Positions 11,347 to 38,777 of a stretch of DNA of 44,589 nucleotides are shown piece by piece. The translations under genes were made by a program, and so were the position numbers. Within the stretch, counting starts at the first letter, position 1. Every line of letters begins with the position of its first letter. The notes under the pieces were generated by a model that worked only from the letters and a program-made list of their open reading frames with translations, was not told the origin of the DNA and searched no databases. Source of the DNA: Chitinophagaceae bacterium (GTDB lineage Bacteria > Bacteroidota > Bacteroidia > Chitinophagales > Chitinophagaceae); assembly GCA_036524255.1 (NCBI GenBank), contig DATDCP010000463.1, positions 1 through 44,589 of the forward strand. Reading direction: 5' to 3'.

Positions 11347-11476
11347 AGAAAATTGAATTCTTTGATTTCGAAGGATGTTGGATGTTACAAAGAAACCCTT
11401 AGAACTGTTATTTATCAAGAGTGGTTTTGCTGAATTCTTTATAGCAGTTTTACGAAAACAAATTGGGTACTTATGC

Positions 11477-11508
11477 TTGTATAAAAAAAAAGAAGATTAC
11501 TACTTTTG
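11477..11508 (+). promoter_or_regulatory. Bacteroidota-type promoter of the 11526 gene, with an A9 tract in the spacer
   Basis: TTG at 11477..11479 and TACTTTTG at 11501..11508 give a 21-nt spacer. The spacer contains nine consecutive A at 11483..11491. The ATG is at 11526. Confidence 0.55.
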
Positions 11509-11525
11509 GCAAAATCCAATTTTGT

Positions 11526-14500
11526 ATGAAAAACTCCACCAAAGTTTTTACACTTCTATTATTTTCAATTTTATTTTCTTCTTTCTCATTATTTGCCCAG
11601 GTTGGGACTAATAATGTATGTAGTGGCGCCTTTAACATTGCACCTGTTACAGGTGCCTGCCCTGCTACAACATATAGTCTTCAAAATGCAAATGCAACAA
11701 CAGGCTTAGGAGCCGGTAATTATGATGCCTGGTATAAGTTTACTACACCAGCCAATATTCGAAATGTTGTAGTATCAATACCGTCTTCTGCCGGCGCTAA
11801 TTTATCTCCTGCTAACTTTTTTATAGAAGCATTTCCATCAAATACATGCCCAACAGATTTAACAGGTTCTTTGGGAGTAGCTACTGAAGGTGCTACAGGT
11901 TTATCACTTACAAATCTCACCCCCAATACAGAATACTTATTTAGGGTGTATAGTACCACCAACCCAACTGGCGGCACAGCAGCCAGCTGGAGTTATACTG
12001 TTTGCGTTTCTTATATATCAGTAGCAAATATTGTCGCTGGTAAAATGAATGAAGTTTACAGGCAAACAATAATATCGCCAGCTATGGCACTTGCAGACCC
12101 CTGGGAAATTACTTATGGGACTGATAATTATTTATGGATCACAGAAGCAAAAGGTTATAAGGTAAATAGAATGAACCCTGTCACCGGTGCTAAACAAGTT
12201 GTGTTGGATGTTTCTCAGGGAAGTACATTTTTGCCTGTAGCTGATCAACCATTTAACGCTCAATTTAATATTGCAACAAATAACCCGCAGGGTGGTTTTG
12301 CAGGATTGGCATTACATCCAAACTTTACAGGTGCAGCAGGTGGCCAAAATTATGTGTACGTTTCGTATGTGCATACTTTTCTTAGTGGTGTTGCTTATAC
12401 AAACAGGATTGTTCGCTTTGTTTACAATACAATTACCAACAGGTTAGAATCACCGGTATCTATATGTGATACTATACCCGGAAGCGGGGATCATAATTCT
12501 CAAAGAATGATTATTGCCCCTATAACAAAAGGTGGTTCTGATTACTATTTATTTTATGCAGCAGGCGATATGGGTGCAGGCCAGCAGTTTCCAACATCTG
12601 CTAACATAACCCGCCCGCAAAAAGCACAGGTACGAAACTCCTATGAAGGAAAAATTTTGCGTTTTGCGTTGTCTGATACCTGTTCTGGTACAGGTAATGA
12701 AAAATGGATACCAGCCACCAACCCTTATAATAATGTAGCACCAATTGTAGGCAAAAGTGCAGTATGGTGTACCGGTATAAGAAACAATCAGGGCTTTGCA
12801 TATAACCCGGAACTTAATATTTTATATGGGGCATCTCATGGCGCATTTAGTGATGATGAAATAAATATCATTGAAGGTTTTAAAAATTATGGTCATCCTT
12901 TAATAGTAGGCTATGCAGATGGTAATTATAATGGTACTACAACACCAGGATTAAGCACTAGTATTTCAGCAGGGGTACCCTTTGGCTATACTGGTGGTTC
13001 TTTTACAGTTGATGGCCAGGCAGCTGCAGCCGGTACCTGCCCGCCAATTGGTAATGAAGTAACAAACATGAATAACATTAATGCAGATTCACTTTTATAT
13101 GGAGCTTATAGGAATCCATTATTTTCTGCTTATCCCGGCCCAGCGTCAGGAACAGGGGCAGTTTCAACTATTTGGAGTGCTGGATCAACTCCAGGTGGTG
13201 CGGGCTGGCATTCAGAGGCATGGTCTGGTTTGGGCTATTATGGAAACACTTATATCCCGGGTTGGAAAAATACTTTGCTGGCCGCTGGTTTAAAATGGGG
13301 AAGAACGATACGATTAAAGCTAAATGCAACAGGCACTGCAGTTATACCAACTGCTGGCGCCGATACTGCGACATATTTTCAGAGCGGTAATCGTTACAGA
13401 GATATGGCATTTTCACCCAATGGAAGAGATATTTATTTGTCGATGGATAGAAGTGCTGCTGGTTCTGCTGGTACGGTTGGTAACCCCCCTGATGTTGTTG
13501 GAGATTGTTTAGGCTGTGTAGTACGGTATGAATTTTTGGGTTATCCAGCAGCTGCAACAGCACTTGCCGGGAGTACTATCTCAAAATCAATTGATGTTAC
13601 TGATGGTGCTGCAAATAGTATTAGTAACGGTACAACAGTTACTATAAATGCTCAAAATGGCAATACTAATTATTGGGTGCCTATTACAGGTCCTGATGGA
13701 AATATAATGGCAGAAATATATGCCAATGGAAATAATCTTGGCACTGTAACTTCATCATTCTATAAAAATTCAGGAGGAATTAGAAGTGCTCCTGGAATAA
13801 AGTATTTAGATAGAAACATAACCATCACCCCACAGTTTCAGCCAACTTTGCCATTAGGTTCACCATTGGTAAAAATAAGACTGTATATTTCAAAAGCAGA
13901 GTTTGATTCGCTGGATACAGATCCGTTGAGTGGCATCTCGTCTATTAACGATTTAAAAATCTTAAAAAACAACGACCCTTGTAGTTCGGCAATGATAGGA
14001 AATGCAACATTGTTTAATCCGATAAATACCCTCCCTGCAGACTTGCAGCATGGAACTAATGGATACGTATTACAAACAAATATTCCTTCTTTTTCATCTT
14101 TCTATTTTGCAGCCAATCTCAGTACCTTGCCTTTGGACCTTATTACATTCACCGGTCAATTACAAAACAATAATTCAGTATTATTAAACTGGAAAACGGA
14201 GAATGAGATCAATACTTCTCATTTTATTGTGGAAAGAAGTGCAGATGGTATTCGTTTTAATGGCATTGGAAATGTAACTGCCAATGGAAGAAACAATACA
14301 GGTGGTTCTTTTAGTTATGCAATTACCGACAATGATGCCATTAATCAATCATCACAGCGACTTTATTACAGGTTGAGAATGGTTGATATTGATGGCAATT
14401 TCAAATACTCAAATATTATTTCTGTATCGTTCCCTCTTATTACTGGAAAGTTAAGTGTATCTCCAAATCCGGTACTCACTTCAGTAAAAGTCGCCATTAC

Positions 14501-14696
14501 TTCTGAAGCTGATGGAAGGGTTCAATGGAAGTTGACAGATAATGTTGGAAAGGTGATACAAACAGGATCAGAGTATGTGAGAAAAGGCGCCGGAAATAAC
14601 TTTACTATTAATATGAATAGATTATCAACAGGTACGTATAATTTAAGTGTCACAGGTGCCGGTATTGATCAGAATGTAAAAATGCAAAAACTGTAA
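11526..14696 (+). CDS. T9SS-secreted PQQ-type sugar dehydrogenase (GSDH/YliI-like beta-propeller) with one N-terminal Cys-rich domain
   Basis: Start moved to MKNSTKVFTLLLFSILFSSFSLFAQ. One copy of the NDxC-type domain lies at nt 11601..12014. GSDH motifs present: DPWEITYG..LWITE, GLALHPNF, GDHNSQR, EGKILRF, GIRNNQGFAY, HGAFSDDEINII..KNYGHP. C-terminal LNWKTENEINTSHFIVERSADGIRF..YYRLRMVDIDGNFKYSNII, then SPNPV.. T9SS tail. Confidence 0.85.
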   Translation: MKNSTKVFTLLLFSILFSSFSLFAQVGTNNVCSGAFNIAPVTGACPATTYSLQNANATTGLGAGNYDAWYKFTTPANIRNVVVSIPSSAGANLSPANFFIEAFPSNTCPTDLTGSLGVATEGATGLSLTNLTPNTEYLFRVYSTTNPTGGTAASWSYTVCVSYISVANIVAGKMNEVYRQTIISPAMALADPWEITYGTDNYLWITEAKGYKVNRMNPVTGAKQVVLDVSQGSTFLPVADQPFNAQFNIATNNPQGGFAGLALHPNFTGAAGGQNYVYVSYVHTFLSGVAYTNRIVRFVYNTITNRLESPVSICDTIPGSGDHNSQRMIIAPITKGGSDYYLFYAAGDMGAGQQFPTSANITRPQKAQVRNSYEGKILRFALSDTCSGTGNEKWIPATNPYNNVAPIVGKSAVWCTGIRNNQGFAYNPELNILYGASHGAFSDDEINIIEGFKNYGHPLIVGYADGNYNGTTTPGLSTSISAGVPFGYTGGSFTVDGQAAAAGTCPPIGNEVTNMNNINADSLLYGAYRNPLFSAYPGPASGTGAVSTIWSAGSTPGGAGWHSEAWSGLGYYGNTYIPGWKNTLLAAGLKWGRTIRLKLNATGTAVIPTAGADTATYFQSGNRYRDMAFSPNGRDIYLSMDRSAAGSAGTVGNPPDVVGDCLGCVVRYEFLGYPAAATALAGSTISKSIDVTDGAANSISNGTTVTINAQNGNTNYWVPITGPDGNIMAEIYANGNNLGTVTSSFYKNSGGIRSAPGIKYLDRNITITPQFQPTLPLGSPLVKIRLYISKAEFDSLDTDPLSGISSINDLKILKNNDPCSSAMIGNATLFNPINTLPADLQHGTNGYVLQTNIPSFSSFYFAANLSTLPLDLITFTGQLQNNNSVLLNWKTENEINTSHFIVERSADGIRFNGIGNVTANGRNNTGGSFSYAITDNDAINQSSQRLYYRLRMVDIDGNFKYSNIISVSFPLITGKLSVSPNPVLTSVKVAITSEADGRVQWKLTDNVGKVIQTGSEYVRKGAGNNFTINMNRLSTGTYNLSVTGAGIDQNVKMQKL

Positions 14697-22161: not shown

Positions 22162-24801
22162 ATGAAGACAACTATACCAATTATTCCCTTCAGGCCCAAT
22201 TTTAAATTTGTGCGAAACTGGTTCATTAACCTGTTTGTTGCCTCTTGGTTTCTTGTACCCACCTCGTCTTTTTCGCAGTGTACAAACTATACAGTTAATT
22301 GGGACTATCTTGATTTTTTTCATAACACACCAGGATCATGGTATTATGTTACTCCCCCAGCAGGGAGCAATCCTTTTGTTACGAACGCAATGAAGCAATC
22401 TCAAAACTTTGCCTTGGGACCAACCAATGTGCTAAATATTGCGACTTTAATTCAAGTTGCTGGAAGTGGTGTATTCTACGGTGATCTTACAAATCATTTA
22501 GGTGAGATTGCTGGATATACCGGAGCGGATGTATCGTTCACCCCAACAGCAAATGGTCAAACTATTATTTTTACTTTTTTGAATGAAGTAACAAATGCAA
22601 GTTTTACCTTATATGGTGTAGATAGACAACAGGTCATTAGTGTAGCCGCGACTAATACTGGTGGTACAGCGCAAACTGTAACAGCTGCTACCTATGCTTC
22701 CAGTATTCTAACAATTTCCGGAGCACCCGGAAAAACAATTACTGCAAGTAATACTACAAGTACGTCTCCTAGCAATACAGGTAGTGCTACTTTTACCGTC
22801 ACTACATCTGTAAAAACAATTACTTTAACTGTAAGTACCCTTGGAAGTATTCCAACATTTTGGCTTTCTGATATTATAGCTTGTTCTCCGGATCCAGGTT
22901 TTCCAACAGACTACTATAAGCCATATACGCAACCTTATACTGGTCAACCTGCTTATTTCCTCGCTAATCCGGATTTTAACCTAAATGTATATATGGTAGA
23001 TCCTGTTAACAGAACTGCCGATCTGTTATTTACTGATCCGGGTATTGGAGGCAATGCATTAAACTCAATAGCATATGACCCGGTAAATAAATATGTTTAC
23101 TATGTAATGAATGGCTCCGGTGCAGGCGCTGGCAACAGGTCACTAAAAAGATATGATGTAACTACAAACAGTATCACAACGGTTCTTGCGGATATAAATT
23201 CATTAGGAGTACCTACGTTTACGCAAGGAGTTGAAGCAGCTTCAGCTGCTTTTTATAATGGTTGTTTATACTTAGGAGTAGAAGGCTCCGAAACAGGTTC
23301 ATTTACCTCAAATACCGAGGCTATCATATGGCGAATTGATTTTAGTGGCACGACGCCCATAAGAGCTTCACAGGTTTTTGGTATGCTAAACGATGATGGT
23401 GCAGGCCAACCCAGTCATGACTGGGGAGATATTATTACTAGAGATGGCAATATAATTACACATGCGTCAACCCGACTTACACCGTCCTACCAAAGTAACT
23501 GGATCCATTTTAACATGACCACAAGCACCTCTACAAATACATATCCGGGATATGCTGATACGTCGGGACAGCTTGGTCAGATTTATGACGGCACAGTCTA
23601 TAGAGTAGATAATCAAATAGCATTATATAATAATAATGGTACGACTGCTGCAGCAAACCCAATATCAGTTACCTCTTGTTCGCCGTCCTGGAACAACAGG
23701 CCGGCAAATGATGCATCGGATCCTTTTAGACCAGCTCTTGATTTTGGAGATGCACCGGCTACTTATGACCCTGTTGCTTTATCTCCGGCTGCAAATCAAA
23801 AAGCATGTAATAACTCAACATTGAGAATAGGTTCGGCGTGGGATCGTGAATGGGTATTAGGTAGTTCATTGAATGCTACAGGAGATGGGACAGATGAAGA
23901 TGGTGTTTCTACCGTTTCTATTATGGTTGCTGATGGCATTTCATATAATCATGTACAGGAAGTAACTGTTCTGAATAATACAGGTGCTCCTGCTTATCTG
24001 GCCGGATGGCTCGACTATAATGCAAATGGGGTCTTTGATCCCTCTGAAGGAGTTGTGGTTACAGTACCAAGCAGCGCTTCACCACAAACAATAACACTTG
24101 GTTGGACTGGAATTACTATAGCACCGGGTACACCGAATAGTTTTTTACGAGTAAGGCTTTATTCCGGAGCGCTAACTACAAGCAGTGCAACAGGCTGGTT
24201 GGCTGATGGCGAAACCGAAGATTATCCTGTACTTTCTCAGGCGATGCCACTTGTTATCGAGTTACTTGATTTCACTGCAACTCTAACGAGAGATAAAAAT
24301 GTTTCATTAAACTGGAGAGCATATGTCGATGACGAAGCAAAGGGTTTTGAAATAGAAAGGAGTAAGGATCAGAATAATTGGGAAAAAATAGGAGCTGTAA
24401 ATTTAAAGACATCGAACTTTACAACAGATTATAGTTTCCTGGATCAACTACCATTACAGGGAAAATCTTATTACCGCCTGAAAATGGTGGAAAAAACAGG
24501 TTCATCAAGATACAGCAAGACAAGGCTGATACAAATTGATCAGCTTATTACAAAACTCAGGATATACCCTAACCCTGCTAAAAATGATGTTACCGTTTCA
24601 TTTAATTCTTCAATGAATCAATCAGCGACATTGATCATCAGATCAATAGCCGGAGAAGTAATGATGAGGAAATCAATCACCCTGGCTGAGACGGACAACC
24701 GGGTAAGTGTGTCAACAAATGGACTAAGCAATGGCTTATACGTTGTTGAGCTAATTACTCCCGAAAAAACATTCGTCAATAAGTTAACTGTAGCACATTA
24801 A
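22162..24801 (+). CDS. Large T9SS-secreted protein with GEVED-like domain, FN3-like module and T9SS tail
   Basis: Signal-like N-terminus, then a Thr/Ser-rich beta-rich body. DFGDAPATYDP..DEDGV..WLDYNANGVFD..GETEDYPV resembles the GEVED domain. This is followed by LNWRAYVDDEAKGFEIERSKDQNNWEKIG..YYRLKMVEKTGSSRYSK and IYPNPAKNDV..GLYVVELITPEKTFVNKLTVAH. Confidence 0.8.
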   Translation: MKTTIPIIPFRPNFKFVRNWFINLFVASWFLVPTSSFSQCTNYTVNWDYLDFFHNTPGSWYYVTPPAGSNPFVTNAMKQSQNFALGPTNVLNIATLIQVAGSGVFYGDLTNHLGEIAGYTGADVSFTPTANGQTIIFTFLNEVTNASFTLYGVDRQQVISVAATNTGGTAQTVTAATYASSILTISGAPGKTITASNTTSTSPSNTGSATFTVTTSVKTITLTVSTLGSIPTFWLSDIIACSPDPGFPTDYYKPYTQPYTGQPAYFLANPDFNLNVYMVDPVNRTADLLFTDPGIGGNALNSIAYDPVNKYVYYVMNGSGAGAGNRSLKRYDVTTNSITTVLADINSLGVPTFTQGVEAASAAFYNGCLYLGVEGSETGSFTSNTEAIIWRIDFSGTTPIRASQVFGMLNDDGAGQPSHDWGDIITRDGNIITHASTRLTPSYQSNWIHFNMTTSTSTNTYPGYADTSGQLGQIYDGTVYRVDNQIALYNNNGTTAAANPISVTSCSPSWNNRPANDASDPFRPALDFGDAPATYDPVALSPAANQKACNNSTLRIGSAWDREWVLGSSLNATGDGTDEDGVSTVSIMVADGISYNHVQEVTVLNNTGAPAYLAGWLDYNANGVFDPSEGVVVTVPSSASPQTITLGWTGITIAPGTPNSFLRVRLYSGALTTSSATGWLADGETEDYPVLSQAMPLVIELLDFTATLTRDKNVSLNWRAYVDDEAKGFEIERSKDQNNWEKIGAVNLKTSNFTTDYSFLDQLPLQGKSYYRLKMVEKTGSSRYSKTRLIQIDQLITKLRIYPNPAKNDVTVSFNSSMNQSATLIIRSIAGEVMMRKSITLAETDNRVSVSTNGLSNGLYVVELITPEKTFVNKLTVAH

Positions 24802-29410: not shown

Positions 29411-30319
29411 TCAATGAGATGTAAGAGATAAAAAGTAATCTTCCAATGAATTTTTTTTCTGAATTGAAAATATATCCTGTTTCATTTCTCCCATTTGCTG
29501 AACAAAAGCCGGCACTTCCTCTCTTTTCATTTGCATAATGATCTTTTGCCCGTTTACTGAAATGATCTTATTTGCCCAGGATGTTTGCTTCAGCAGCAAT
29601 TCAAATTCATTTGCAGATCTGGTTTCAACTTCTATTCTCGATTGTTCAGGATTCAATAATTCATTCATATTTCCCTCTGCAATTTTTTTCCCTTTATGAA
29701 TAATCAGTAATGAATCTGCTACTTGTTCCATTTCACTTAATAAATGAGAGGAAATAAATACAGTTTTTCCCAGATCCTTACTCAGGTGATTAATTAGCTG
29801 TCGTATATCGGCGATCCCTTGTGGATCCAGTCCATTCATAGGTTCATCTAAAATAATTAGATCAGGATCATGAACCAGGGCTACAGCGATCCCCAATCTT
29901 TGTTTCATTCCCTGTGAATATGTTTTTATTTTACTATCTGCTCTTTCAGCGAGGCCCACTTTCCCCAGTTTATCCATTAATTGTTTGCGTTTAAGTTTTA
30001 ATCCGCTCATTGTTGCAAACAAATTCAAGTTCTCAATTGCAGTAAGATATTTATACAGATCAGGTTTTTCAATTATGGCACCTATTCGTTGCAAAATTTC
30101 TTTTCTATGTGTGGAAAGATCAAGGTCAAAAATTCTTATTTCACCATTGGCAGGTCTAATTAAGCTCAGCAGCATTCGTATAGTAGTAGATTTTCCTGCA
30201 CCGTTTTGACCCAAAAAACCATAAACACCGTTCTCTTTTACAGTAAAAGTCAAATTATCAACTGCGATGATTTCGTTGAATGATTTCGTTAATCCACTAA
30301 CATCAATGATTGAAGACAT
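29411..30319 (-). CDS. ABC transporter ATP-binding protein (ABC-2 exporter type)
   Basis: Walker A GQNGAGKST, signature YSQGMKQRLGIA, Walker B LIILDEP, H-loop SSH. Confidence 0.92.
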   Translation of the reverse strand: MSSIIDVSGLTKSFNEIIAVDNLTFTVKENGVYGFLGQNGAGKSTTIRMLLSLIRPANGEIRIFDLDLSTHRKEILQRIGAIIEKPDLYKYLTAIENLNLFATMSGLKLKRKQLMDKLGKVGLAERADSKIKTYSQGMKQRLGIAVALVHDPDLIILDEPMNGLDPQGIADIRQLINHLSKDLGKTVFISSHLLSEMEQVADSLLIIHKGKKIAEGNMNELLNPEQSRIEVETRSANEFELLLKQTSWANKIISVNGQKIIMQMKREEVPAFVQQMGEMKQDIFSIQKKNSLEDYFLSLTSH

Positions 30320-30338
30320 ATAGTAATAGTACGAAATT

Positions 30339-30346
30339 CAAAATTA
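30339..30346 (-). promoter_or_regulatory. Candidate -7 box (TAATTTTG) for the ABC operon
   Basis: The plus-strand CAAAATTA is TAATTTTG on the minus strand, 20 nt upstream of the ATG at 30319. I found no clear -33 TTG. Confidence 0.35.
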
Positions 30347-30413
30347 GCTCAAAAATTCTTCATTGAGAATGAGTCCTTTCAAAATAAGATAACAAAAATC
30401 CCCTTGGAAAAAC

Positions 30414-30520
30414 TTGCATGCGCTGATTGCACATATTACGTTTGTGATGTCGTAGAATAATGGAAGCATCGAAGGAAAAATTACGATAAACGATCCGTTA
30501 CTAATTCAACCCTAAGGAAA
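30414..30520 (+). promoter_or_regulatory. Cassette 0 promoter plus conserved leader
   Basis: TTG at 30414..30416 and TACGTTTG at 30437..30444. The leader has ATCCGT at 30493..30498 and TCAACCCTAAGG immediately before the ATG. Confidence 0.6.
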
Positions 30521-31144
30521 ATGAAAAAAATTATTACCCTGTTATTAATTAGTTTTTCAATAACCGCTCAATCAATCAACGCACAATTAGACCTGGCTTT
30601 TGTTTCCAATTTCAGTGCTAACCCAACTAATTCCTCCAATCGACTTACCTGGACAATCGCAAGTAATCAGAGTGTGAGTAGTTTCGAAGTTGAAAAAAGC
30701 ACCAATGGAAAAGACTTTAAGACTATTGCAATATTGGAAGTAACAGAAGAATTTAATACAGAAAATTATACATATACTGATACTGCGATCAGTGCAGACA
30801 AAATAATGTATCGTCTTAGAGTATTGATCAGGAGGAGCCAGCATGATTTTTATTCAAGGATTATTATAGTCAAGTCCAAAACGAAGCTTGATGACAATAT
30901 CAGGATCATGGAAAACCCTGTAAAGGATAAGCTTTTTTTCAGTTACAATTCTGCAAAAGTGCAAGTAGCAGATATCAAAATATATAGCCTGACAGGAAAA
31001 ATTTTAGTTAATCAAAAAATAAGCAGTTTTAAAGGAAATAATTTAATAACTATTCCATTAAGCTCAGTCTTTGCACCTGGAATGTATGTGATTGAAATTA
31101 ATACTGATATTTTAAACCAAACCGCAAAATTCGTAAAACAATAA
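30521..31144 (+). CDS. 'Headless' T9SS surface protein: signal peptide + FN3-like module + T9SS tail
   Basis: 207 aa. LTWTIASNQSVSSFEVEKSTNGKDFKTIA..MYRLRVL, then ENPVKDKLFF..GMYVIEINTDILNQTAKFVKQ. It is a paralog of the tails of the next three genes. Confidence 0.8.
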   Translation: MKKIITLLLISFSITAQSINAQLDLAFVSNFSANPTNSSNRLTWTIASNQSVSSFEVEKSTNGKDFKTIAILEVTEEFNTENYTYTDTAISADKIMYRLRVLIRRSQHDFYSRIIIVKSKTKLDDNIRIMENPVKDKLFFSYNSAKVQVADIKIYSLTGKILVNQKISSFKGNNLITIPLSSVFAPGMYVIEINTDILNQTAKFVKQ

Positions 31145-31190
31145 CAGCTTTTTCATAAAATACTAATACAAGCCATTAGCCAAAAGAAAA

Positions 31191-31217
31191 AGGCCCTTTA
31201 TAAAAAGGGCCTTTTTT
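31191..31217 (+). terminator. Intrinsic terminator of cassette 0
   Basis: Stem AGGCCCTT/AAGGGCCT followed by tttttt. The stem is related to the GGCCC stems ending the 3' elements. Confidence 0.8.
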
Positions 31218-31425
31218 ATGTACAAACAGATCTAGCAACAAATACATGCTCTACACATAAACACAAGATCATCATTTGTGAATGCAGTTGAATAATTCGT
31301 TGATCTACGAACTGCAATGATAAAAGACATAAAGTAATTATACTAAGTTCAAAATTAGTTTTAAAAAAAACATTATTGAAAATGAAACTATTGAGATCTT
31401 ACTTAAAAAAAACCCGTAGAAAAAC

Positions 31426-31607
31426 TTGCAACAATTAAATGTGCATATTACGTTTGTGTCAGCGTAAGAACAATCCAAAGTATCCACGAAAAACAACGAT
31501 AAGCAATCCGTACTGATACCTCTTCTAAAAGAACCATTTTCCGGTAACATTACGGCTGCTTCAAAAAATTCGAAAAATCGATCCGTTTAATATTCAACCC
31601 TAAGAAA
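31426..31607 (+). promoter_or_regulatory. Cassette A promoter plus ~150-nt conserved leader
   Basis: TTG at 31426..31428 and TACGTTTG at 31449..31456. AATCCGT at 31505..31511 and ATCCGT at 31581..31586. Stem CCGTACTGATACC (31508..31520) with GGTAACATTACGG (31543..31555). TCAACCCTAAG lies before the ATG. Confidence 0.6.
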
Positions 31608-32726
31608 ATGAAAAAGATCTTTACCCTTTGCACCCTTGTAACATTGTCACTTTTTGCGAATAACTCATATTCGCAGATTAATGTAAACTTTGATAATGGG
31701 TTTGCCCCCCTTCAAGCCGATTGCTGGCAGTTCACTAACATGATGCATGCAACCACCCCTTCCGGTTATGTTATTAATGGGAATGGAAGTGCATACTCAG
31801 AGCCACCAGTAAGTTCCGACAGTTTACGTATTATGCGTACACCGTTCCTCGATTTTGGAACTGTTGTCGATGTATCTTTTGTTTACAGAATTAGCAGCAA
31901 TCTAAATGGCCTTGCAACAAGGTTTATAAAACTTGACCTGGTGAATTCTGCAGGAGTAGTTGTTCAGACTCTTGACAGCTTTAACATCAGTAATGCCGCT
32001 ACAACTTCTACTTTATACAGCCAGACGTTTGCGGTTAATACTCCAGGTATGTATAGATTTTCTCTTACCATGGGTGGAAAAACAGGAGCTGGTAATGTAA
32101 GAACATCAATTGATGATCTAAATGTAAATGCCCCGGTAATAGGCTGTGACGCTGTCGAAGTAAACAAGGTATTGCCTGTTCATCTTATCGCTTTCCAGGG
32201 TAACCTTAATAAGAATAATAAAGTAACTCTTAACTGGACTGTTGCTGATAATGAGATCGCCGGAAATTTTGAAGTAGAAAGAAGTTTTAACGGAAGAGAT
32301 TTTACAACGGTTGGTTTTGTATTTGCTTCTGAAAAAATGGGAACTGAAAACTATATGTTTTATGAAACAATAAGTGGTACAGATAAAGTGATGTATCGTC
32401 TTAAAATGATCGATAAACATCATGAAGTTAGTTATTCAAGAATACTGATCTTCCAGTTGAAATCTACGACCACTAATAATATCAAGATCATCGGTAACCC
32501 TGTAAACGATAAACTTACTTTCAGCTACACTTCTGCAGGCACACAAATGGTTGATGTAAAAGTTTACGATATAAGTGGCAGAATATTATTAAATAATAAA
32601 GTAAATAGCCTGGAAGGCAGCAACGTGATAAGCCTGCCATTAAGTTCAACTTTCAAGGCTGGTATGTATGTGGTAGAAGTAAATAACGGAACCGAAGTTC
32701 ATTCATCAAAATTTGTAAAGCAATAA
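31608..32726 (+). CDS. T9SS surface protein with ~170-aa beta-rich head + shared FN3-like/T9SS tail
   Basis: Signal peptide ..LFANNSYSQ and a head of unknown family. The tail is almost identical to that of the next gene. Confidence 0.85.
   Translation: MKKIFTLCTLVTLSLFANNSYSQINVNFDNGFAPLQADCWQFTNMMHATTPSGYVINGNGSAYSEPPVSSDSLRIMRTPFLDFGTVVDVSFVYRISSNLNGLATRFIKLDLVNSAGVVVQTLDSFNISNAATTSTLYSQTFAVNTPGMYRFSLTMGGKTGAGNVRTSIDDLNVNAPVIGCDAVEVNKVLPVHLIAFQGNLNKNNKVTLNWTVADNEIAGNFEVERSFNGRDFTTVGFVFASEKMGTENYMFYETISGTDKVMYRLKMIDKHHEVSYSRILIFQLKSTTTNNIKIIGNPVNDKLTFSYTSAGTQMVDVKVYDISGRILLNNKVNSLEGSNVISLPLSSTFKAGMYVVEVNNGTEVHSSKFVKQ
32171..32726 (+). repeat. Copy 1 of a 556-bp near-identical direct repeat (partner at 34474..35029)
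   Basis: Both copies run from ATTGCCTGTTCATCTTAT.. to the stop codon with no indels. By eye I count roughly 20 substitutions. Confidence 0.9.
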
Positions 32727-32799
32727 AACATTATTAACTCAATTAACTTTTCATTTCTTAGATAATACTTCTATTTCATTGAAAAAAATCGAATTGAAT

Positions 32800-32829
32800 A
32801 AAAGCCGAAAAAAATTCGGCTTTTATTTT
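32800..32829 (+). terminator. Intrinsic terminator of cassette A, inside a 126-nt insertion
   Basis: Stem AAAGCCGAA/TTCGGCTTT followed by tattttaaaa. Confidence 0.75.
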
Positions 32830-32852
32830 AAAAAAAGAAATTAAATGTTCAA

Positions 32853-33036
32853 ACAAGCCATCTTCCCGAAATCTGGAGGGAGCAAAGGAAGATAGGAACA
32901 AGCAATCCTCGTCAATCAAAAAGATCTCCTGATACTAAGTCAAAGATTCTGACGACTGGTTAAACCCTTGAAAAATTTTCATACACTTAGAGTATCAACG
33001 GAGACGGGCCCTATTTCTATAGGGCCTTTTTTATTT
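32853..33036 (+). ncRNA. Conserved structured 3' element, copy A (candidate 3'-UTR-derived or stand-alone small RNA), ending in an intrinsic terminator
   Basis: Nearly identical to 35038..35220. Hairpin ATCTTCC/GGAAGAT; long-range helix TCTCC-TGATAC-TAAG with CTTA-(GA)-GTATCA-(AC)-GGAGA; terminator GGCCCTAT ttct ATAGGGCC + tttttt at 33007..33036. Confidence 0.45.
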
Positions 33037-33238
33037 ATAATAGATCAGGACAAAAGAACATATCTTCTTTACAATAAAAATCAGATCATTATTTGTGTTG
33101 CCTGTTGAATGATTTTTTAATACACATCTTAAATGTTACAAGACTTAAGCATTAGACTAAGTTCTAAAATTTGTTTTAAAAAAATTTGTTGAAAATGAGT
33201 CTATTGAAATTTTACTTGAAAAAAACCCTTAGAAAAAG

Positions 33239-33412
33239 TTGCAACAATTAAATGTGTGTATTACGTTTGTATCAGCGTAAAGAATCCACCGATCCCCGAA
33301 AAACTCCGATAAGTAATCCGTACTGATACCTCCTCTAAAAAAAATTTCCCGGTAACATTACGGTAGCTTCTAAAGTTAGACACAACAATCCGTCATACAT
33401 CAACCCTAAGAA
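33239..33412 (+). promoter_or_regulatory. Cassette B promoter plus ~140-nt conserved leader
   Basis: TTG at 33239..33241 and TACGTTTG at 33262..33269. AATCCGT at 33315..33321 and 33387..33393. Stem 33318..33330 with 33351..33363. TCAACCCTAAG lies before the ATG. Confidence 0.6.
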
Positions 33413-35029
33413 ATGAAAAAGATTTTTACACTTTCCGTTCTTGCCATCTCTGCCACCTTCTTAAATGCGCAGGTAGTACTTAACGAGATCTATACCGATC
33501 CAGGTAATGGCAAAAATGAATTCTTTGAATTCTACAATACAAGTTCAGACCCTGTACCACAAAACATGGACAACTATACCTTGGTAGCTTATTATGAGGA
33601 ACCAGGTAAAACTGGTTTCTACGTATTGGATCTTCCCAATCAAACAGTAGCTTCTAAAGGTTTTTATGTAGGTTCATCTGCAAACCCATTTAAAGTGCAG
33701 GGACAGACAAATGTTGCAGCGGATTTTGTATGGAACGCAATTCCTGCCGGTGGTTACCTGAAAAAATTCGAAAGATCAGGAGCTATTTACACTGAGGTCG
33801 CTGTTCCTGCAAACCTTAATGATCTTTTTGTGGCACGTTCTGGCACGGGTTGCATACAACATATTTTAGTTTTCCAAAATGGATTACTTATTAATGGAAT
33901 TGTTACGGGAACAAATTTTGCCATTTTGCCAACTTATCTTAAAACAATGCCCCCATTGTTTGTAGATATGAGCGGTGCTTCAATAGACTTTACAGTAAAT
34001 TTTAATTCTTTTAATGATAACCAGTTCGAATATGTGAATTCAGCTGCAGGTAATGACAATGGCTATATGCGTCTTAGCGATGGTAAGTGTGGTGTATGGG
34101 CTAAAAGTAGCTCTGCGGTAAATCATACTCCCGGTCAATCAAATGGATCGGCTTCTGGTTCAGCCGGAGATCTTTCGATCAGCAACTACATTACTGAATT
34201 AGAAAGCGATTTTACGAAATCCTTGTTAGTGTATAATGTCACTTCCACAACCTTATCAGCGTTCCCGGTTACAATCCAGGTATATGAAGACTTGGGAATA
34301 ATAGGACAATTGGATGCGGCTGATCTAATAGTCGATTCAAGAGTGCTTTATACTTTAACTGAAGGTGACCAGTTTGTGATCATACCTTCCAGAACTTATC
34401 CGGCAATTATTGTTGCAAGAACTCCTTCGGGATGCTTTGACCAGGTTATTGCAGTACCTAATAGCTTAAAGCTATTGCCTGTTCATCTTATTGCTTTCCA
34501 GGGAAACCTTAATAAGAATAATAAAGTAACTCTTAACTGGACTATTGCTGATAATGAGATCGCCAACAATTTTGAAGTAGAAAGAAGTTTTAACGGAAGA
34601 GACTTTACAACGGTTGGTGTTGTATTCGCTTCTGAAAAAATGGGAACTGAAAACTATATGTTTTATGAAACAACAACTGGTACAGATAAAGTGATGTATC
34701 GTCTTAAAATGATCGATAAACATCATGAAGTTAATTATTCAAGAATACTGATCTTCCAGTTGAAATCTACGACCACTAATAATATCAAGATCATTGGTAA
34801 CCCTGTAAACGATAAACTTACTTTTAGCTACACTTCTGCAGGCACACAAATGGTTGATGTAAAAGTTTACGATATAAGTGGCAGAGTATTATTAAATAAT
34901 AAAGTAAACAGCCTGGAAGGCAGCAACGTGATAAGCTTACCACTAAATTCAACTTTCAAGGCTGGTATGTATGTGGTAGAAGTAAATAACGGAACCGAAC
35001 TTCAATCATCAAAATTTGTAAAGCAATAA
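33413..35029 (+). CDS. T9SS surface protein with lamin-tail-domain (LTD)-like head + shared FN3-like/T9SS tail
   Basis: The signal peptide is followed by VVLNEIYTDPGNGKNEFFEFYNTSSDPVPQNMDNYTLVAYY, an LTD-type pattern. The tail LNWTIADNEIANNFEVERSFNGRDF..YRLKMIDKHHEV.. GNPVNDKLTF..GMYVVEVNNGTELQSSKFVKQ completes the protein. Confidence 0.85.
   Translation: MKKIFTLSVLAISATFLNAQVVLNEIYTDPGNGKNEFFEFYNTSSDPVPQNMDNYTLVAYYEEPGKTGFYVLDLPNQTVASKGFYVGSSANPFKVQGQTNVAADFVWNAIPAGGYLKKFERSGAIYTEVAVPANLNDLFVARSGTGCIQHILVFQNGLLINGIVTGTNFAILPTYLKTMPPLFVDMSGASIDFTVNFNSFNDNQFEYVNSAAGNDNGYMRLSDGKCGVWAKSSSAVNHTPGQSNGSASGSAGDLSISNYITELESDFTKSLLVYNVTSTTLSAFPVTIQVYEDLGIIGQLDAADLIVDSRVLYTLTEGDQFVIIPSRTYPAIIVARTPSGCFDQVIAVPNSLKLLPVHLIAFQGNLNKNNKVTLNWTIADNEIANNFEVERSFNGRDFTTVGVVFASEKMGTENYMFYETTTGTDKVMYRLKMIDKHHEVNYSRILIFQLKSTTTNNIKIIGNPVNDKLTFSYTSAGTQMVDVKVYDISGRVLLNNKVNSLEGSNVISLPLNSTFKAGMYVVEVNNGTELQSSKFVKQ
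34474..35029 (+). repeat. Copy 2 of the 556-bp near-identical direct repeat (partner at 32171..32726)
   Basis: See copy 1. The encoded tails differ at about ten amino-acid positions. Confidence 0.9.
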
Positions 35030-35037
35030 CCTTAATA

Positions 35038-35220
35038 ACAAGCCATCTTCCCGAAATCTGGAGGGAGCAAAGGAAGATAGTACAAGCAATCCTCGTCAAT
35101 CAAAAAGATCTCCTGATACTAGCCAAAGATTCTGACGACCGGTTAAAACCTTAAAGATTTTCATACACTTAGAGTATCAACGGAGACGGGCCCTATTTCT
35201 ATAGGGCCTTTTTATTTTTT
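35038..35220 (+). ncRNA. Conserved structured 3' element, copy B, starting 9 nt after the stop codon and ending in an intrinsic terminator
   Basis: Same helices as copy A. The terminator stem is 35189..35196 with 35201..35208, followed by a T-run to 35220. Confidence 0.45.
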
Positions 35221-35272
35221 ACGTTTAAACACAAAAAAAGACAGTGTATCGTAGTTTTTCATCGCATATTGC

Positions 35273-35469
35273 TTGCTTTCCCAATAAACACGTAGTAGAT
35301 TTGTTAAGAAGATTTCGTCAAATATCCGACGTAAAAACCATCTAAGATAATCCGTACTGATACTCACTCTAGAAACAATTCCTTTTCATTACGGCATTTT
35401 CAGCTGGTGGTTAAGATCAGAGATCATTAGACCTTTTTAATCCGTTTTTGATAATTCAACCCTAAGGAA
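35273..35469 (+). promoter_or_regulatory. Cassette C promoter plus ~165-nt leader
   Basis: TTG at 35273..35275 and TAGATTTG at 35296..35303. AATCCGT at 35349..35355 and 35439..35445. Stem CCGTACTG (35352..35359) with CATTACGG (35387..35394). TTCAACCCTAAGG lies before the ATG. Confidence 0.55.
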
Positions 35470-37089
35470 ATGAAAAAATTTTTTACTCTTTGTGTGCTAA
35501 TATGCATTGTGATCGTATCAAGATCCCAGGCTGTATTAAACGAGGTTTACCCGCAACCTGGAAACGGTTATCATGAATTCTTCGAGCTTTACAACGAATC
35601 TGACACTGCTGAAAATCTAGATAATTATACAGTTGTCATTTATTATGAAGAAGGGACTACATCCGGATTCTATGTACTTGATCTTCCTACCGCATCTGTA
35701 GCAGCACATGGTTATTATGTAGGCGCTTCGCAAACTTCTTTTGATATTCAGGCTCAGCTGGGGCAAACCGCAAATTTCAGTTGGAACTCAATGCCTGCTG
35801 GTGGTTCATTAACGAAATGGCAAAAGAATGGATCTTCTTATACATCAGTTGCAGTACCTGCAAACCTTAATGATCTTTTAGTAAAAATTAATGGTGGTGG
35901 TGGTGGTGTATTTCATGTTTTTGTTTATAAAAATGGAATTATAGTAAATGGTCTCATTGGAGGTATTAGCACAAGCGTTGTACCGGCTTATATAAAAACA
36001 ATGCCGAATTTACCTGTCGATATGAGTGGCAGTTCACCTGACTTTATTATCAACTTCAATACTACCGCTGATAACAGTTTAGAATACCTGACTAATTCCG
36101 TAGGTACAAACAATGGTTACTTCCGCAGTTCTGATGGATTATGTGGTGATTGGTTAAAAAGTGATTCTCCGGGACAACATACACCGGGAGCAACAAATGG
36201 CGCATCACTAAGTTTAATTTCTTCAAACCAATTTTCAATTGGGGCTGTTATATCTGCTTACACCTTTGATCTAAGCAAATCTCTGCTCACTTATAATATA
36301 TCATCAGCTCCTGCAGGTGCCTTTCCTCTTACAGTTGAGATATATGCTGATCTCGGTATTGCGAGTGAATGGGATATAAACGACAGCCTTATTGATTTGA
36401 GAACCATCCTCAGTGCATCTTCCGGTAACCAGGATATAGTATTATCATCATTAAATACTGCTGTAATTGTTGTTGTAAAATCAGCAAATGATTGTTATAA
36501 CAAAAATCTTCCCGTTGCAAGCTATTTGTCAGTATTACCAGTTGAGTTGATCAGCTTCCAGGGCAACATAAACAAAAGCAATAAGGTATCACTTGAATGG
36601 AAAGTGATGAGTAATGAAACAATTGATCGTTTTGAAATACAAAGGAGCTATGATGGGAATGAATTTAAAACAATTGGAATCGTATTTGCAAGCGAGAAAA
36701 AAGATAATGAAGACTACATGTTCTATGAAACGATCAACAGTTTTGATAAAGCAATGTATCGTCTTAAAATGATTGACAAGAACAATAAGGTCACTTACTC
36801 CAAAATATTGGTGTTTCAGTCAAAAGCTGCAACTACCAGCAATATCAAGATCATCGGAAACCCTGTGAATGATAAACTCACCTTCAATTATTCATCTTTT
36901 ACAGAACAGGTAATTAATGTAAAGATTTATGACATGACAGGCAGGGTTATCATGAGCAATAAAATAAATAGCCTTGAAGGAAGTAATACTATATGTTTTC
37001 CTTTGGCCTCAAATTTTAAAACGAATATGTATGTACTAGAAGTAAGTAATGGATCTGATATTCAAACAGCAAAATTCATAAAGCAATAA
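35470..37089 (+). CDS. T9SS surface protein with LTD-like head (diverged paralog) + FN3-like/T9SS tail
   Basis: AVLNEVYPQPGNGYHEFFELYNESDTAENLDNYTVVIYY. The tail is LEWKVMSNETIDRFEIQRSYDGNEF..YRLKMIDKNNKV..GNPVNDKLTF..MYVLEVSNGSDIQTAKFIKQ. Confidence 0.85.
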   Translation: MKKFFTLCVLICIVIVSRSQAVLNEVYPQPGNGYHEFFELYNESDTAENLDNYTVVIYYEEGTTSGFYVLDLPTASVAAHGYYVGASQTSFDIQAQLGQTANFSWNSMPAGGSLTKWQKNGSSYTSVAVPANLNDLLVKINGGGGGVFHVFVYKNGIIVNGLIGGISTSVVPAYIKTMPNLPVDMSGSSPDFIINFNTTADNSLEYLTNSVGTNNGYFRSSDGLCGDWLKSDSPGQHTPGATNGASLSLISSNQFSIGAVISAYTFDLSKSLLTYNISSAPAGAFPLTVEIYADLGIASEWDINDSLIDLRTILSASSGNQDIVLSSLNTAVIVVVKSANDCYNKNLPVASYLSVLPVELISFQGNINKSNKVSLEWKVMSNETIDRFEIQRSYDGNEFKTIGIVFASEKKDNEDYMFYETINSFDKAMYRLKMIDKNNKVTYSKILVFQSKAATTSNIKIIGNPVNDKLTFNYSSFTEQVINVKIYDMTGRVIMSNKINSLEGSNTICFPLASNFKTNMYVLEVSNGSDIQTAKFIKQ

Positions 37090-37099
37090 AAATATTTAA

Positions 37100-37236
37100 G
37101 AGCACATCCGTACCGTCAAACAAAGTCTCCCGATACTAAGCCAAAGAATCTGTAGATTGGTTAAACCCTTGAAGTATTTCATACACTTAGAGTATCAACG
37201 GAGACGGGCCCTATTTCCATAGGGCCTTTTTTATTT
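37100..37236 (+). ncRNA. Conserved structured 3' element, copy C (lacks the first hairpin), ending in an intrinsic terminator
   Basis: Has ATCCGT at 37106..37111 and the long-range helix TCTCC-CGATAC-TAAG with CTTAGAGTATCAACGGAGA. The terminator is GGCCCTAT ttcc ATAGGGCC + T-run, and the T-run overlaps the stop of the convergent wHTH gene. Confidence 0.4.
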
Positions 37237-37518
37237 TTGTGTAAGGTAAGCCTGCAGATTTTTTACATACTCTTCGAATGCTTTGATCCCGATTGACGTT
37301 ATTTTACAAATTGTTTGAGGATAATTGTCTTTAAATTGTTTTATTACCTCGATATAACCTACTTCTTTTAATTTTTGAATTTGCACACTTAGGTTTCCGG
37401 CTGTGGCATTTGTGTTTTCCTTTAAAAAAGTAAACTCTGCTTCTTTTACACTTATAAGAAGTGACATCACAGCCAATCGTAGTTGAGAATGCAATATGGG
37501 ATCAAGATCTTTAAACAT
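37231..37518 (-). CDS. Small winged-helix transcriptional regulator (HTH_34/ArsR-MarR-like)
   Basis: 95 aa. LDPILHSQLRLAVMSLLISVKEAEFTFLKENTNATAGNLSVQIQKLKEVGYIEV is a typical wHTH pattern. It overlaps the upstream gene by 8 nt. Confidence 0.75.
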   Translation of the reverse strand: MFKDLDPILHSQLRLAVMSLLISVKEAEFTFLKENTNATAGNLSVQIQKLKEVGYIEVIKQFKDNYPQTICKITSIGIKAFEEYVKNLQAYLTQK

Positions 37519-38182
37519 TCAATTGGGCTTGTTCCTTTTTATACATTCGATATTCTTTTTCCATAATAACCCCCGGTACCAGCCAGGCAAGTACAGCTGA
37601 TGCTGCAGTTAACAAAAGATCTATTTTGATTGATGTATATATAGCAACAATACAACAGATCCAGCAAAAAATGCCGCCCCACAGCATTGGTTTAAATTTA
37701 CATGCTGCGCCAGTTATAAATGTTGGCATACCATATAGCATTAAAAAAAGCGGACCGACAAATTCATAAAACCCATAAGAAACACCATTACCCGTTGCTG
37801 GTTTATATTGATTGGTCCATGCACCCCATTCATTAAAAATATTATTGCAAATAAGTATCAGTAAAAAAATACAAATCCCAAATCCAAGCCATATATAATC
37901 CAAATATGGATCATCATAAGATTTTACTTTTCGTTCTTTTTTCTCCCTTATACTTATTAATATTTGTGGAATGATGGCTACAAGAGTAAGCAAATAAATA
38001 TCAAATGGAAGTCTGTACGCAAAATGAACCTCTGATAATCTTACCAAAGAACATATTGCGATAACTGCTCCCCACATGATAGCGCCGATACCGGTATCAT
38101 GGTAAGATTCTTTGGCCTTATTGATCATCATCGTGATCAGGTGCAGGCTTTCTTGTTCTGTTAATTTTTTTTCCTGTTCCAT
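37511..38182 (-). CDS. Integral membrane protein, unknown function (paralog of the next gene)
   Basis: N-terminal amphipathic EQESLHLITMMINKAKESY followed by about 5-6 hydrophobic spans. Confidence 0.7.
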   Translation of the reverse strand: MEQEKKLTEQESLHLITMMINKAKESYHDTGIGAIMWGAVIAICSLVRLSEVHFAYRLPFDIYLLTLVAIIPQILISIREKKERKVKSYDDPYLDYIWLGFGICIFLLILICNNIFNEWGAWTNQYKPATGNGVSYGFYEFVGPLFLMLYGMPTFITGAACKFKPMLWGGIFCWICCIVAIYTSIKIDLLLTAASAVLAWLVPGVIMEKEYRMYKKEQAQLNV

Positions 38183-38186
38183 AAAC

Positions 38187-38777
38187 TTATTTGTTTTGGA
38201 GTTTTTCTTTTGCGCTCAATACATGACCGGGGATAATGTAAGATATCAATATAGCCAATGCCATCAACAATAATTGCCAGTCAAACGATACATAGACCCC
38301 AATTACCATAATAGGTAAACATAAAAGTCCCGTCCATTTTAAGAGGGGGAATTGCATTAATGCTCCCATAAAAAAGCAGGTAACTGCATATACAAGTATA
38401 TACAATGGAAACGAAATAGCCCACAAATCATACTTACCGAAGAAAAAAGCGAGCCCGGTATAAAGAATACCCTGGCTAATGCCAAAGACCTTCATGGTTT
38501 CTCCCACAAAAGTTTTTACAGCAATTTTCCTGGAATCCCTTACCCCTTTAATAATACTTGCAATTGCTCCTATCCAAACGAGGTTCCAGGCAAGATAGGG
38601 TTGCTCAAAGTCGGTGAACTTCTTTAGACCGAAATTCAAAAGAGCCGCTATGAAGATCAACCAGCCCCAAAGCAAAAGGTAAAAAGAATTATTTGCTACA
38701 TCCTGTTTTGCTTTTTCAATCATTGATTGAATAAGATGCAAGCTTTGTTCGGCAGAAAATTTTTGGTTGTTTTCCAT
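38187..38777 (-). CDS. Integral membrane protein, unknown function (paralog of the previous gene)
   Basis: N-terminal AEQSLHLIQSMIEKAKQDV followed by about 5 hydrophobic spans. There is a 4-nt gap to the next gene. Confidence 0.7.
   Translation of the reverse strand: MENNQKFSAEQSLHLIQSMIEKAKQDVANNSFYLLLWGWLIFIAALLNFGLKKFTDFEQPYLAWNLVWIGAIASIIKGVRDSRKIAVKTFVGETMKVFGISQGILYTGLAFFFGKYDLWAISFPLYILVYAVTCFFMGALMQFPLLKWTGLLCLPIMVIGVYVSFDWQLLLMALAILISYIIPGHVLSAKEKLQNK

Follow-up and report, generated by a model that had tools for sequence, protein, structure and literature searches.

Cargo families of the type IX secretion system (T9SS) are very large in environmental Bacteroidota, while to our knowledge almost nothing is known about the post-transcriptional regulation of individual T9SS cargo genes, in a phylum in which we know of neither Hfq nor classical Shine-Dalgarno pairing. 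One known family of this kind is the modular adhesin-protease family RgpA/Kgp/HagA of Porphyromonas gingivalis, in which a signal peptide, variable domains and an Ig/FN3-like domain precede a conserved C-terminal sorting domain (CTD) of ~80 amino acids (aa), and whose paralogs swap domains by homologous recombination (PMC5266723). Here we analyse a tandem array of four T9SS cargo genes in a 44.6-kb stretch of DNA (hereafter the window; contig DATDCP010000463.1, assembly GCA_036524255.1) from an uncultured soil Chitinophagaceae bacterium, which has the same protein layout and whose paralogs likewise appear to have swapped domains. Our preferred interpretation, to which we assign a probability of about 0.72, is that the array is a lineage-specific tandem family of T9SS cargo genes that share a single conserved expression-and-secretion framework. 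At the protein level it belongs to a well-known class, the T9SS cargo multigene families, whose evolution proceeds through duplication and exchange of domains. The new part of the locus is a family-private, strongly conserved 5' leader and 3' untranslated region (3' UTR) element, for which literature searches turned up no described counterpart on T9SS cargo; among described systems, only the P. gingivalis analogy emerged from the literature.

The first-pass annotation of this DNA, made from the sequence alone, had described four same-strand genes that share an FN3-like and T9SS tail of ~185 aa and differ in their N-terminal parts (heads). The four open reading frames (ORFs) are confirmed on the plus strand (Table 1), and the extreme C terminus of 4/4 proteins matches both PF18962 (Por_Secre_tail; 31.1-37.6 bits, cut-off 27) and TIGR04183 (34.3-46.3 bits, cut-off 23). 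A profile of the 185-residue tail spans residues 22-207, 188-372, 355-538 and 355-539 of the products of genes 1 to 4, respectively. Because the match in gene 1 begins at residue 22, this gene consists of a putative signal peptide joined straight to the tail, as had been proposed. The motifs quoted earlier (EVERS, YRLKMID, KF[VI]KQ, VLNE.Y, EFFE.YN and DNYT) are present in the translations. All four N termini show MKK, a hydrophobic stretch and an A/S-Q site, as read from the translations, and the AlphaFold2 models place a low-confidence helix at residues 9-15 (gene 2) and 2-17 (gene 4).

Structural models and domain profiles point to non-catalytic, binding-type folds for the heads where a head is present. 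The AlphaFold2 model of the gene 2 product (mean pLDDT 78) contains three beta-sandwich domains, and its best Foldseek matches in the PDB are the MAM-Ig-FN modules of receptor phosphatases together with CBM4 and CBM22; on these matches, the model indicates a MAM/CBM-like jelly-roll head, after which come an FN3/Ig-like module and then the CTD. For genes 3 and 4, to which the first-pass annotation had given lamin-tail-domain (LTD)-like heads, PF00932 matches at E ~1e-7, but the scores (31.4 and 32.5 bits) fall slightly below the gathering score of 34.3. Many orthologs carry a precomputed PF00932 match, and the gene 4 model (pLDDT 69) is a chain of Ig/FN3-like sandwiches with a beta-sandwich at the LTD-like region. 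No catalytic domain was recognised in the array proteins, and searches of protein profiles against PDB sequences gave no useful match.

Each gene appears to be equipped with its own expression signals. The pattern TTGC-N16-22-TAnnTTTG, which follows the published definition of the Bacteroidetes promoter motif (PMC7366714), has five matches in the window, four of them directly before the four array genes. Between predicted promoter and start codon lies a leader of ~140-165 nucleotides (nt) in genes 2-4 and ~75 nt in gene 1; for comparison, 5' UTRs of Bacteroides thetaiotaomicron have a median length of 32 nt (PMC7366714). In gene 1, ~75 nt of leader (window 30465-30520) are missing through an apparent deletion between the two direct ATCCGT boxes, and a full-length leader before the headless gene is still present in related loci L007 and L008. 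Bases upstream of the ATG in the array genes agree with the A-rich pattern described at Bacteroidetes translation starts (PMC7366714), and no ATG that would open an upstream ORF was found in the leaders. Predicted terminators, each a G+C-rich hairpin with a T run, follow every array gene. Leader and 3' sequences are repeated among the units, with three to four matches per motif against 0.08-0.15 expected in shuffled sequence. The earlier proposal that every gene has its own promoter, long leader and terminator is thereby borne out for four units at the level of prediction, except that gene 1 has a leader of only ~75 nt and lacks the long 3' element described below.

Genes 2-4 are followed by a 3' element of 150-190 nt, whereas gene 1 has a terminator only. 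The 26 nt that precede the terminator, CATACACTTAGAGTATCAACGGAGAC, are identical in 84 of ~97 copies (~87%) from many species, counting only copies that were located without using the core sequence; the remaining copies carry single-base differences, chiefly in the first seven positions. This core adjoins the terminator in every copy. In minimum-energy folds the upstream strand TCTCC.GATAC pairs with GTATC.AAC.GGAGA around a variable middle, and the terminator follows. All ten positions of this helix pair in 41 or more of the 46 distinct haplotypes, and substitutions in the TCTCC.GATAC strand are G-U compatible in 39 cases and incompatible in 18, where only 6 of 30 possible single changes could keep the pair, a count that is inflated by sequence relatedness and transition bias. 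These data support the predicted helix, short of proof. In the terminator stem a compensatory A-T to T-A exchange is seen. Fold z-scores of the 3' element are modest (-1.4 and -2.8). For the leader, RNAalifold returns a weak CCGUA:UACGG helix (-1.7 kcal/mol) that lacks compensatory changes. With fold z-scores of -0.8 and -1.6, the leader has no convincing conserved secondary structure.

The leader and the 3' element are under selection and specific to this family. Between the window and locus L010, four-fold degenerate sites are 30-42% identical (random level 27%), while leaders are 67-72% and 3' UTRs 65-74% identical. For gene 4, the comparison with locus L007 gives 50% at four-fold sites, 89% in the leader and 93% in the 3' UTR. 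The same holds among old paralogs within the window, where genes 2 and 3 compared with gene 4 have ~40% identity at the four-fold sites of the tail and 77-82% in the 3' UTRs. Since the UTRs evolve much more slowly than synonymous sites, their similarity is not neutral debris of duplication, which answers a doubt raised in the first-pass annotation. With regard to specificity, the leader box ATCCGTA(C/T)(C/T)G(A/G)TAC occurs 166 times in all the DNA examined, and in 161 cases it lies ~92-175 nt before the MKK/MKT-type start of a signal-peptide gene; the complete, unbroken ORFs behind these 161 boxes all end in the shared tail. Four of the other five boxes lie at contig ends, and for the fifth the start-codon rule chose an unrelated ATG. 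All 3' cores were found downstream of a family gene. Profiles of the leader and the 3' element find nothing elsewhere in the window, its four other cargo genes included. Rfam gave no match at gathering thresholds over the whole window, and over 30200-37400 a permissive E-value returned terminator-like chance matches only (E up to 5). From this pattern we infer that the two elements act at the RNA level, as cis-acting post-transcriptional control elements.

Comparable arrays are found in related genomes. Orthologs of gene 4 with 92-66% aa identity lie on long metagenomic contigs, and the array occupies the same place in eight independent syntenic contigs, which were covered over ±10 kb each. 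Scanning species-representative genomes with a 24-nt 3' core yielded 23 loci, all in metagenome-assembled genomes (MAGs) of uncultured Chitinophagaceae or Bacteroidota, and scanning metagenomes with the leader box yielded 76 further loci on JGI contigs. The commonest order, headless / MAM-like / LTD / LTD, is that of the window and recurs in many genomes; variants have lost the MAM-like or the first LTD gene, carry two MAM-like genes or are changed in order. Other heads, of 420, 442, 465-468 and 757 aa, occur as well, and gene 2 homologs with cadherin/Big-like heads also bear the shared tail. At least seven head classes are combined with one leader and tail, and the expectation that heads would vary while leader, tail and 3' element stay constant holds across these genomes.

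The paralogs are old: across genomes, tails of one paralog type cluster together, and between types 30-60% of the amino acids differ. The array probably arose by duplication of a segment larger than the gene. A 71-nt repeat (D10; Table 1) that stands before gene 2 is 79% identical to 30285-30355, at the start of the divergent ABC ATPase gene, and a weaker fossil of this kind lies at ~33100-33185, before gene 3; ABC ATPase fossils are also present in L003, L004, L006 and L007. They imply that the duplicated unit reached across the divergent intergenic region into the first codons of the ABC ATPase gene, and on its sequence D10 reads as the edge of the ancient duplication unit.

Window gene 3 is an exception to the grouping by type, and its sequence gives clear signs of a recent gene conversion that brought in the gene 2 tail. 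Its head is 85-95% identical to gene 3 orthologs (L003, L004), while the tract that covers its tail and stop-codon context is 95-100% identical to gene 2 and 57-80% to gene 3 orthologs. Relative to gene 2, the gene 3 tail is 94% identical in protein and 99% at four-fold sites; relative to orthologs, dS is 1.5-3.0 in its tail and 0.36-0.43 in its head. The switch falls at the head-tail junction (~34470-34487), and the tract extends beyond the stop codon. In addition, window gene 2 bears a 3' flank that belongs to gene 3 in other genomes, and L006 has a second MAM-type gene behind a gene-3-type promoter and leader. The conversion tract and the swapped flanks argue for exchange of heads and tails by homologous recombination through the conserved flanks, on an evolutionary timescale. 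The heads are under purifying selection (dN/dS 0.10-0.24; tails 0.06-0.35).

Table 1. Positions of the array genes, their predicted expression signals and other features of the window
Feature	Position	Strand	Description
Divergent ABC ATPase gene	29411-30319	-	
Predicted promoter, gene 1	30414-30444	+	TTGCA ... TAcgTTTG; pattern match; kept in orthologous loci
Short leader, gene 1	30445-30520	+	Segment between two ATCCGT boxes gone; ATTCAACCCTAAGG retained before ATG
Gene 1	30521-31144	+	207 aa: putative signal peptide, FN3-like module, T9SS type A CTD; no head
Predicted terminator hairpin, gene 1	31187-31216	+	GGCCCTTT..AAAGGGCC, then T run
ABC ATPase 5' fossil	31296-31366	-	Repeat D10
Predicted promoter, gene 2	31426-31456	+	Pattern match
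Conserved leader, gene 2	31457-31607	+	Box ATCCGTACTGATAC at 31506-31519; nhmmer E 3e-37
Gene 2	31608-32726	+	372 aa: putative signal peptide, predicted MAM/CBM-like jelly-roll head (~23-180), tail from residue 188
Extra terminator-like hairpin, gene 2	32803-32828	+	AAAGCCGAAAAAAATTCGGCTTTT; between stop codon and 3' element
3' element, copy 1	32852-33036	+	First hairpin with GGAGGGAG loop, strand TCTCC.GATAC, core 32986-33005, terminator 33006-33027
Predicted promoter, gene 3	33239-33269	+	Pattern match
Conserved leader, gene 3	33270-33412	+	Box at 33316-33329
Gene 3	33413-35029	+	538 aa: putative signal peptide, LTD-like head, beta-sandwich region, tail from residue 355
Gene-conversion tract	34470-35036	+	Gene 3 tail and stop-codon context replaced by gene 2 type
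3' element, copy 2	35037-35218	+	Core 35168-35187, terminator 35188-35209
Predicted promoter, gene 4	35273-35303	+	TTGC ... TAgaTTTG; pattern match
Conserved leader, gene 4	35304-35469	+	Box at 35350-35363
Gene 4	35470-37089	+	539 aa: putative signal peptide, LTD-like head, beta-sandwich region, tail from residue 355
3' element, copy 3	37094-37236	+	Without first hairpin; core 37186-37205, terminator 37206-37227; z-score -2.8
HTH_34 winged-helix gene and membrane protein gene	37231-38777	-	
Other cargo gene	4235-6220	-	FN3-like and CTD tail
Other cargo gene	6922-11418	-	FN3-like and CTD tail
Other cargo gene	11463-14696	+	FN3-like and CTD tail
Other cargo gene	22162-24801	+	FN3-like and CTD tail

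We propose the following model for the array as a T9SS cargo family on a shared framework. Each gene is most likely transcribed separately from a Bacteroidetes sigma-A-type promoter, as predicted from sequence, and the mRNA would open with the long leader, which leads to a start codon surrounded by A-rich sequence. The protein would carry a Sec signal peptide, a variable binding-type head, the FN3-like spacer module and the type A CTD, and, as established T9SS biology predicts, would be exported through the T9SS and then attached to the cell surface or released. For genes 2-4 the mRNA would end in the 150-190-nt 3' UTR with its near-invariant last 26 nt before the terminator hairpin. The array would have been born by an ancient segmental duplication that included the divergent promoter region and the first ABC ATPase codons, after which the paralogs would have persisted as distinct lineages under purifying selection, with occasional recombination between conserved leader and tail sequences reshuffling heads and tails and altering copy number. 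We postulate that the leader and the 3' element act in cis on translation, stability or processing and could give the paralogs a common regulatory input.

Several observations weigh against parts of this model. Promoters, monocistronic transcription and UTR boundaries are predictions. The secondary structure of the elements is weakly supported: RNAalifold finds little structure beyond the terminator, fold z-scores are overall only -0.8 to -2.8, and the near-invariant core leaves covariation no room. Moreover, gene-3-type flanks have a separate terminator ahead of the 3' element, so that transcription of the element behind it may be poor, or its conservation may have a DNA-level reason.

Four other explanations were considered, two of which concern how the array arose and varies. 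That the shared UTRs are functionless, neutral leftovers of a recent whole-segment duplication is extremely improbable. The units did originate by segmental duplication, as repeat D10 suggests, and the tails and 3' elements of genes 2 and 3 are near-identical through recent conversion, but orthologous and old paralogous UTRs are far better kept than the near-saturated four-fold sites, and neutrality sits poorly with a 3' core left unaltered in ~87% of copies from many species. The first-pass annotation had suggested paralog switching or surface variation, which we considered in a programmed form, with a single cassette active at any time or with cassettes swapped so that the cell surface varies. 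Different heads on a constant framework would suit such a locus, as would the head-tail recombination event in this lineage, the variable array content among genomes and the precedent of P. gingivalis, whose T9SS cargo diversifies by domain rearrangement and allelic exchange (PMC5266723). The machinery and the signature of switching are missing, however: promoters are not flanked by inverted repeats, the only such sequences being terminator hairpins and scattered chance-level pairs; no invertase, integrase or recombinase is encoded among the called genes within ±10 kb at eight loci, nor among the window ORFs examined; and there are no silent cassettes, as in 4/4 copies a promoter motif precedes an intact ORF with its start codon. 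The paralog types are old and orthologous across genomes, diversifying selection is not seen in the heads, and one four-gene order recurs in many genomes; the recombination observed belongs to an evolutionary timescale. These data give switching no support, and we rate it as very improbable.

The other two explanations accept the conservation of the elements and assign it a different role. If the conserved blocks acted as DNA, they could be transcription-factor sites, for instance of the adjacent HTH_34 protein, or recombination hot spots. Every leader has three ATCC(G) boxes, which recur in the 3' element, conservation is clearer in primary sequence than in structure, the 3' element lies behind a terminator in gene-3-type flanks, and the HTH_34 gene follows gene 4 in 8/8 syntenic loci. 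Yet the boxes come after the predicted start sites and are confined to a single strand, a strand-specific terminator closes every 3' element, the element after gene 4 faces a convergent gene instead of a promoter, and the preference for G-U compatible changes in TCTCC.GATAC (39 vs 18) is an RNA-level signature; we consider a DNA-level role improbable. A riboregulator private to the family is also unlikely in our view. Here the 3' core and terminator would form a 3'-UTR-derived small RNA (sRNA), or engage in 5'-3' UTR pairing, and bind the leader box of every paralog; the 20-nt core CUUAGAGUAUCAACGGAGAC would act, the internal mimic strand TCTCC.GATAC would gate access to it, and one cassette would feed back on the others by cross-repression, dosage balancing or mutual exclusion. 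A 16-nt stretch of the core, UUAGAGUAUCAACGGA, is complementary to the leader box UCCGU-AC-UGAUAC-N4-UCUAA, and the best predicted duplex sits on the leader box in every leader (-14.9 to -17.8 kcal/mol). Among the 5' regions of 114 genes at seven loci, family leaders rank as the top 14, with a family mean duplex energy of -14.7 against -9.9 ± 2.0. The leaders are homologous, so that the 18 family values are really one observation, the duplex is broken by two bulges, and duplexes at chance sites of the window, at -20 to -23 kcal/mol, are stronger than those at the leaders. Variants of the leader box mix wobble-compatible and disruptive changes. By eye, short variants of the 3' element seem to lack the internal partner strand while the core is unchanged, which suggests constraint by a partner other than the internal helix; on the other hand, the core also pairs inside its own element, and the cross-complementarity could simply follow from the presence of two related stem-loops. 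In 3'-UTR-derived sRNAs, a conserved seed typically stands immediately before the terminator that they share with the parent mRNA. Candidate sRNAs of this class exist in Bacteroides (PMC7366714).

Further observations concern the 3' flanks. The extra hairpin of gene 2 (Table 1) raises the question of how the 3' element behind it is transcribed; the flank with this extra terminator belongs to the gene 3 type (first LTD gene) in other genomes. In the same flank, TTTTCATTTCTTAG (32748-32761) is a perfect 14-nt reverse complement of CTAAGAAATGAAAA (33406-33419), the start region of gene 3. L003, L004 and L009 carry the anti-start sequence in their gene-3-type 3' flanks, too; an inverted gene-start remnant and an anti-translation-initiation element are both possible readings of it. 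By eye, no TAnnTTTG box is present upstream of the 3' element. The leader and the 3' element have AAGCAATCC and GATAC in common, as well as TTAAACCCTTGAAG vs TTCAACCCTAAGAAA; homology between them was rejected, as the leader profile does not detect 3' elements at E <10, and we treat this as resemblance only. Three other candidates were dropped: a helix P3 (TAAG:CTTA) of the 3' element, for which the number of paired haplotypes falls to 23 of 46; a minus-strand small ORF in the 3' element (MKIFKVLTGRQNLWL...), whose copies differ, by eye, by internal 1-nt indels; and a likeness of the CCGUACC box to 16S rRNA helix 45, which is too short to be meaningful.

With respect to the surroundings, the upstream neighbours of the array are an outer-membrane beta-barrel gene and, except in L006, an ABC transporter operon; downstream stands the HTH_34 gene, with an ATP synthase operon near. 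In 8/8 syntenic loci the HTH_34 gene is convergent and directly downstream of gene 4, and a regulatory link to the array is possible. In the window the HTH_34 gene overlaps the start of a gene for a multi-pass membrane protein without a Pfam match, and a second such gene comes next. The tail architecture is not peculiar to the array, being shared by the four other cargo genes in the window (profile E 1e-15 to 1e-28); GBD_T9SS_assoc repeats, a glucose/sorbosone dehydrogenase and a GEVED domain are among the heads of those four. The window contains no T9SS core genes; the host likely has the machinery, because eight CTD-bearing genes occur in 44.6 kb and related MAGs are assigned to Chitinophagaceae.

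The related arrays L025, L085, L050 and L059/L107 between them have new heads of 420, 442 and ~757 aa behind the family leader and a gene-4-type signal peptide that stands directly on the tail, with the head deleted. In L025, three or four genes share nearly one gene-2-type tail end (~5642-6070 in flipped orientation is among the sites noted), which looks like homogenisation. Frameshifts split many genes in L009 and L031, which lie on one 2-Mb contig; the ATP synthase genes are among them, as is the first LTD gene. The pattern resembles an assembly error from long-read indels, not true pseudogenisation.

The locus offers a compact natural test case, in which leader, signal peptide, tail and 3' UTR are reused as one conserved unit with at least seven heads. 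If the elements do control translation or stability, or let the paralogs sense each other, they would add a new regulatory layer to surface-protein repertoires; were the riboregulator explanation true, the expression of alternative T9SS surface proteins would be coupled, for example by mutual exclusion or dosage balancing. If they are merely ordinary stability elements, the array would still be a well-documented case of tandem T9SS paralog evolution by duplication and conversion. The conserved flanks could also serve as an expression and secretion scaffold for Chitinophagaceae.

Several known systems resemble the array in part. 3'-UTR-derived sRNAs and structured 3' UTRs are numerous in Proteobacteria. 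Candidates are also described in B. thetaiotaomicron (PMC7366714). The array's 3' element has the feature in common with 3'-UTR-derived sRNAs that a single-strand-capable segment directly upstream of the parent-mRNA terminator is conserved beyond neutral expectation. It differs from them in that it occurs on two or three paralogs of one array only, has no Rfam match and has its own family's leader as best predicted target. Integron cassettes likewise form a row of short same-strand units that each end in a conserved structured repeat, but were rejected as a parallel: each array unit appears to carry a separate promoter, the encoded proteins are related to one another, neither an integrase nor attI is near, and an intrinsic terminator of the ordinary kind closes the repeat. 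With the invertible promoters and shufflons of Bacteroides, pilE/pilS and vlsE, the array shares tandem constant/variable surface genes and gene conversion; unlike them, it has no inverted repeats, recombinase or promoterless silent copies and its variable parts are under purifying selection, and we do not place it among phase- or antigenic-variation loci. Domain rearrangement and allelic exchange in the P. gingivalis T9SS family would, by analogy, be the nearest documented counterpart. Compared with that family, the array is a compact, syntenic tandem array of uncultured soil Chitinophagaceae, its heads appear non-catalytic or are absent, and it has a conserved 5' leader and 3' UTR element of its own.

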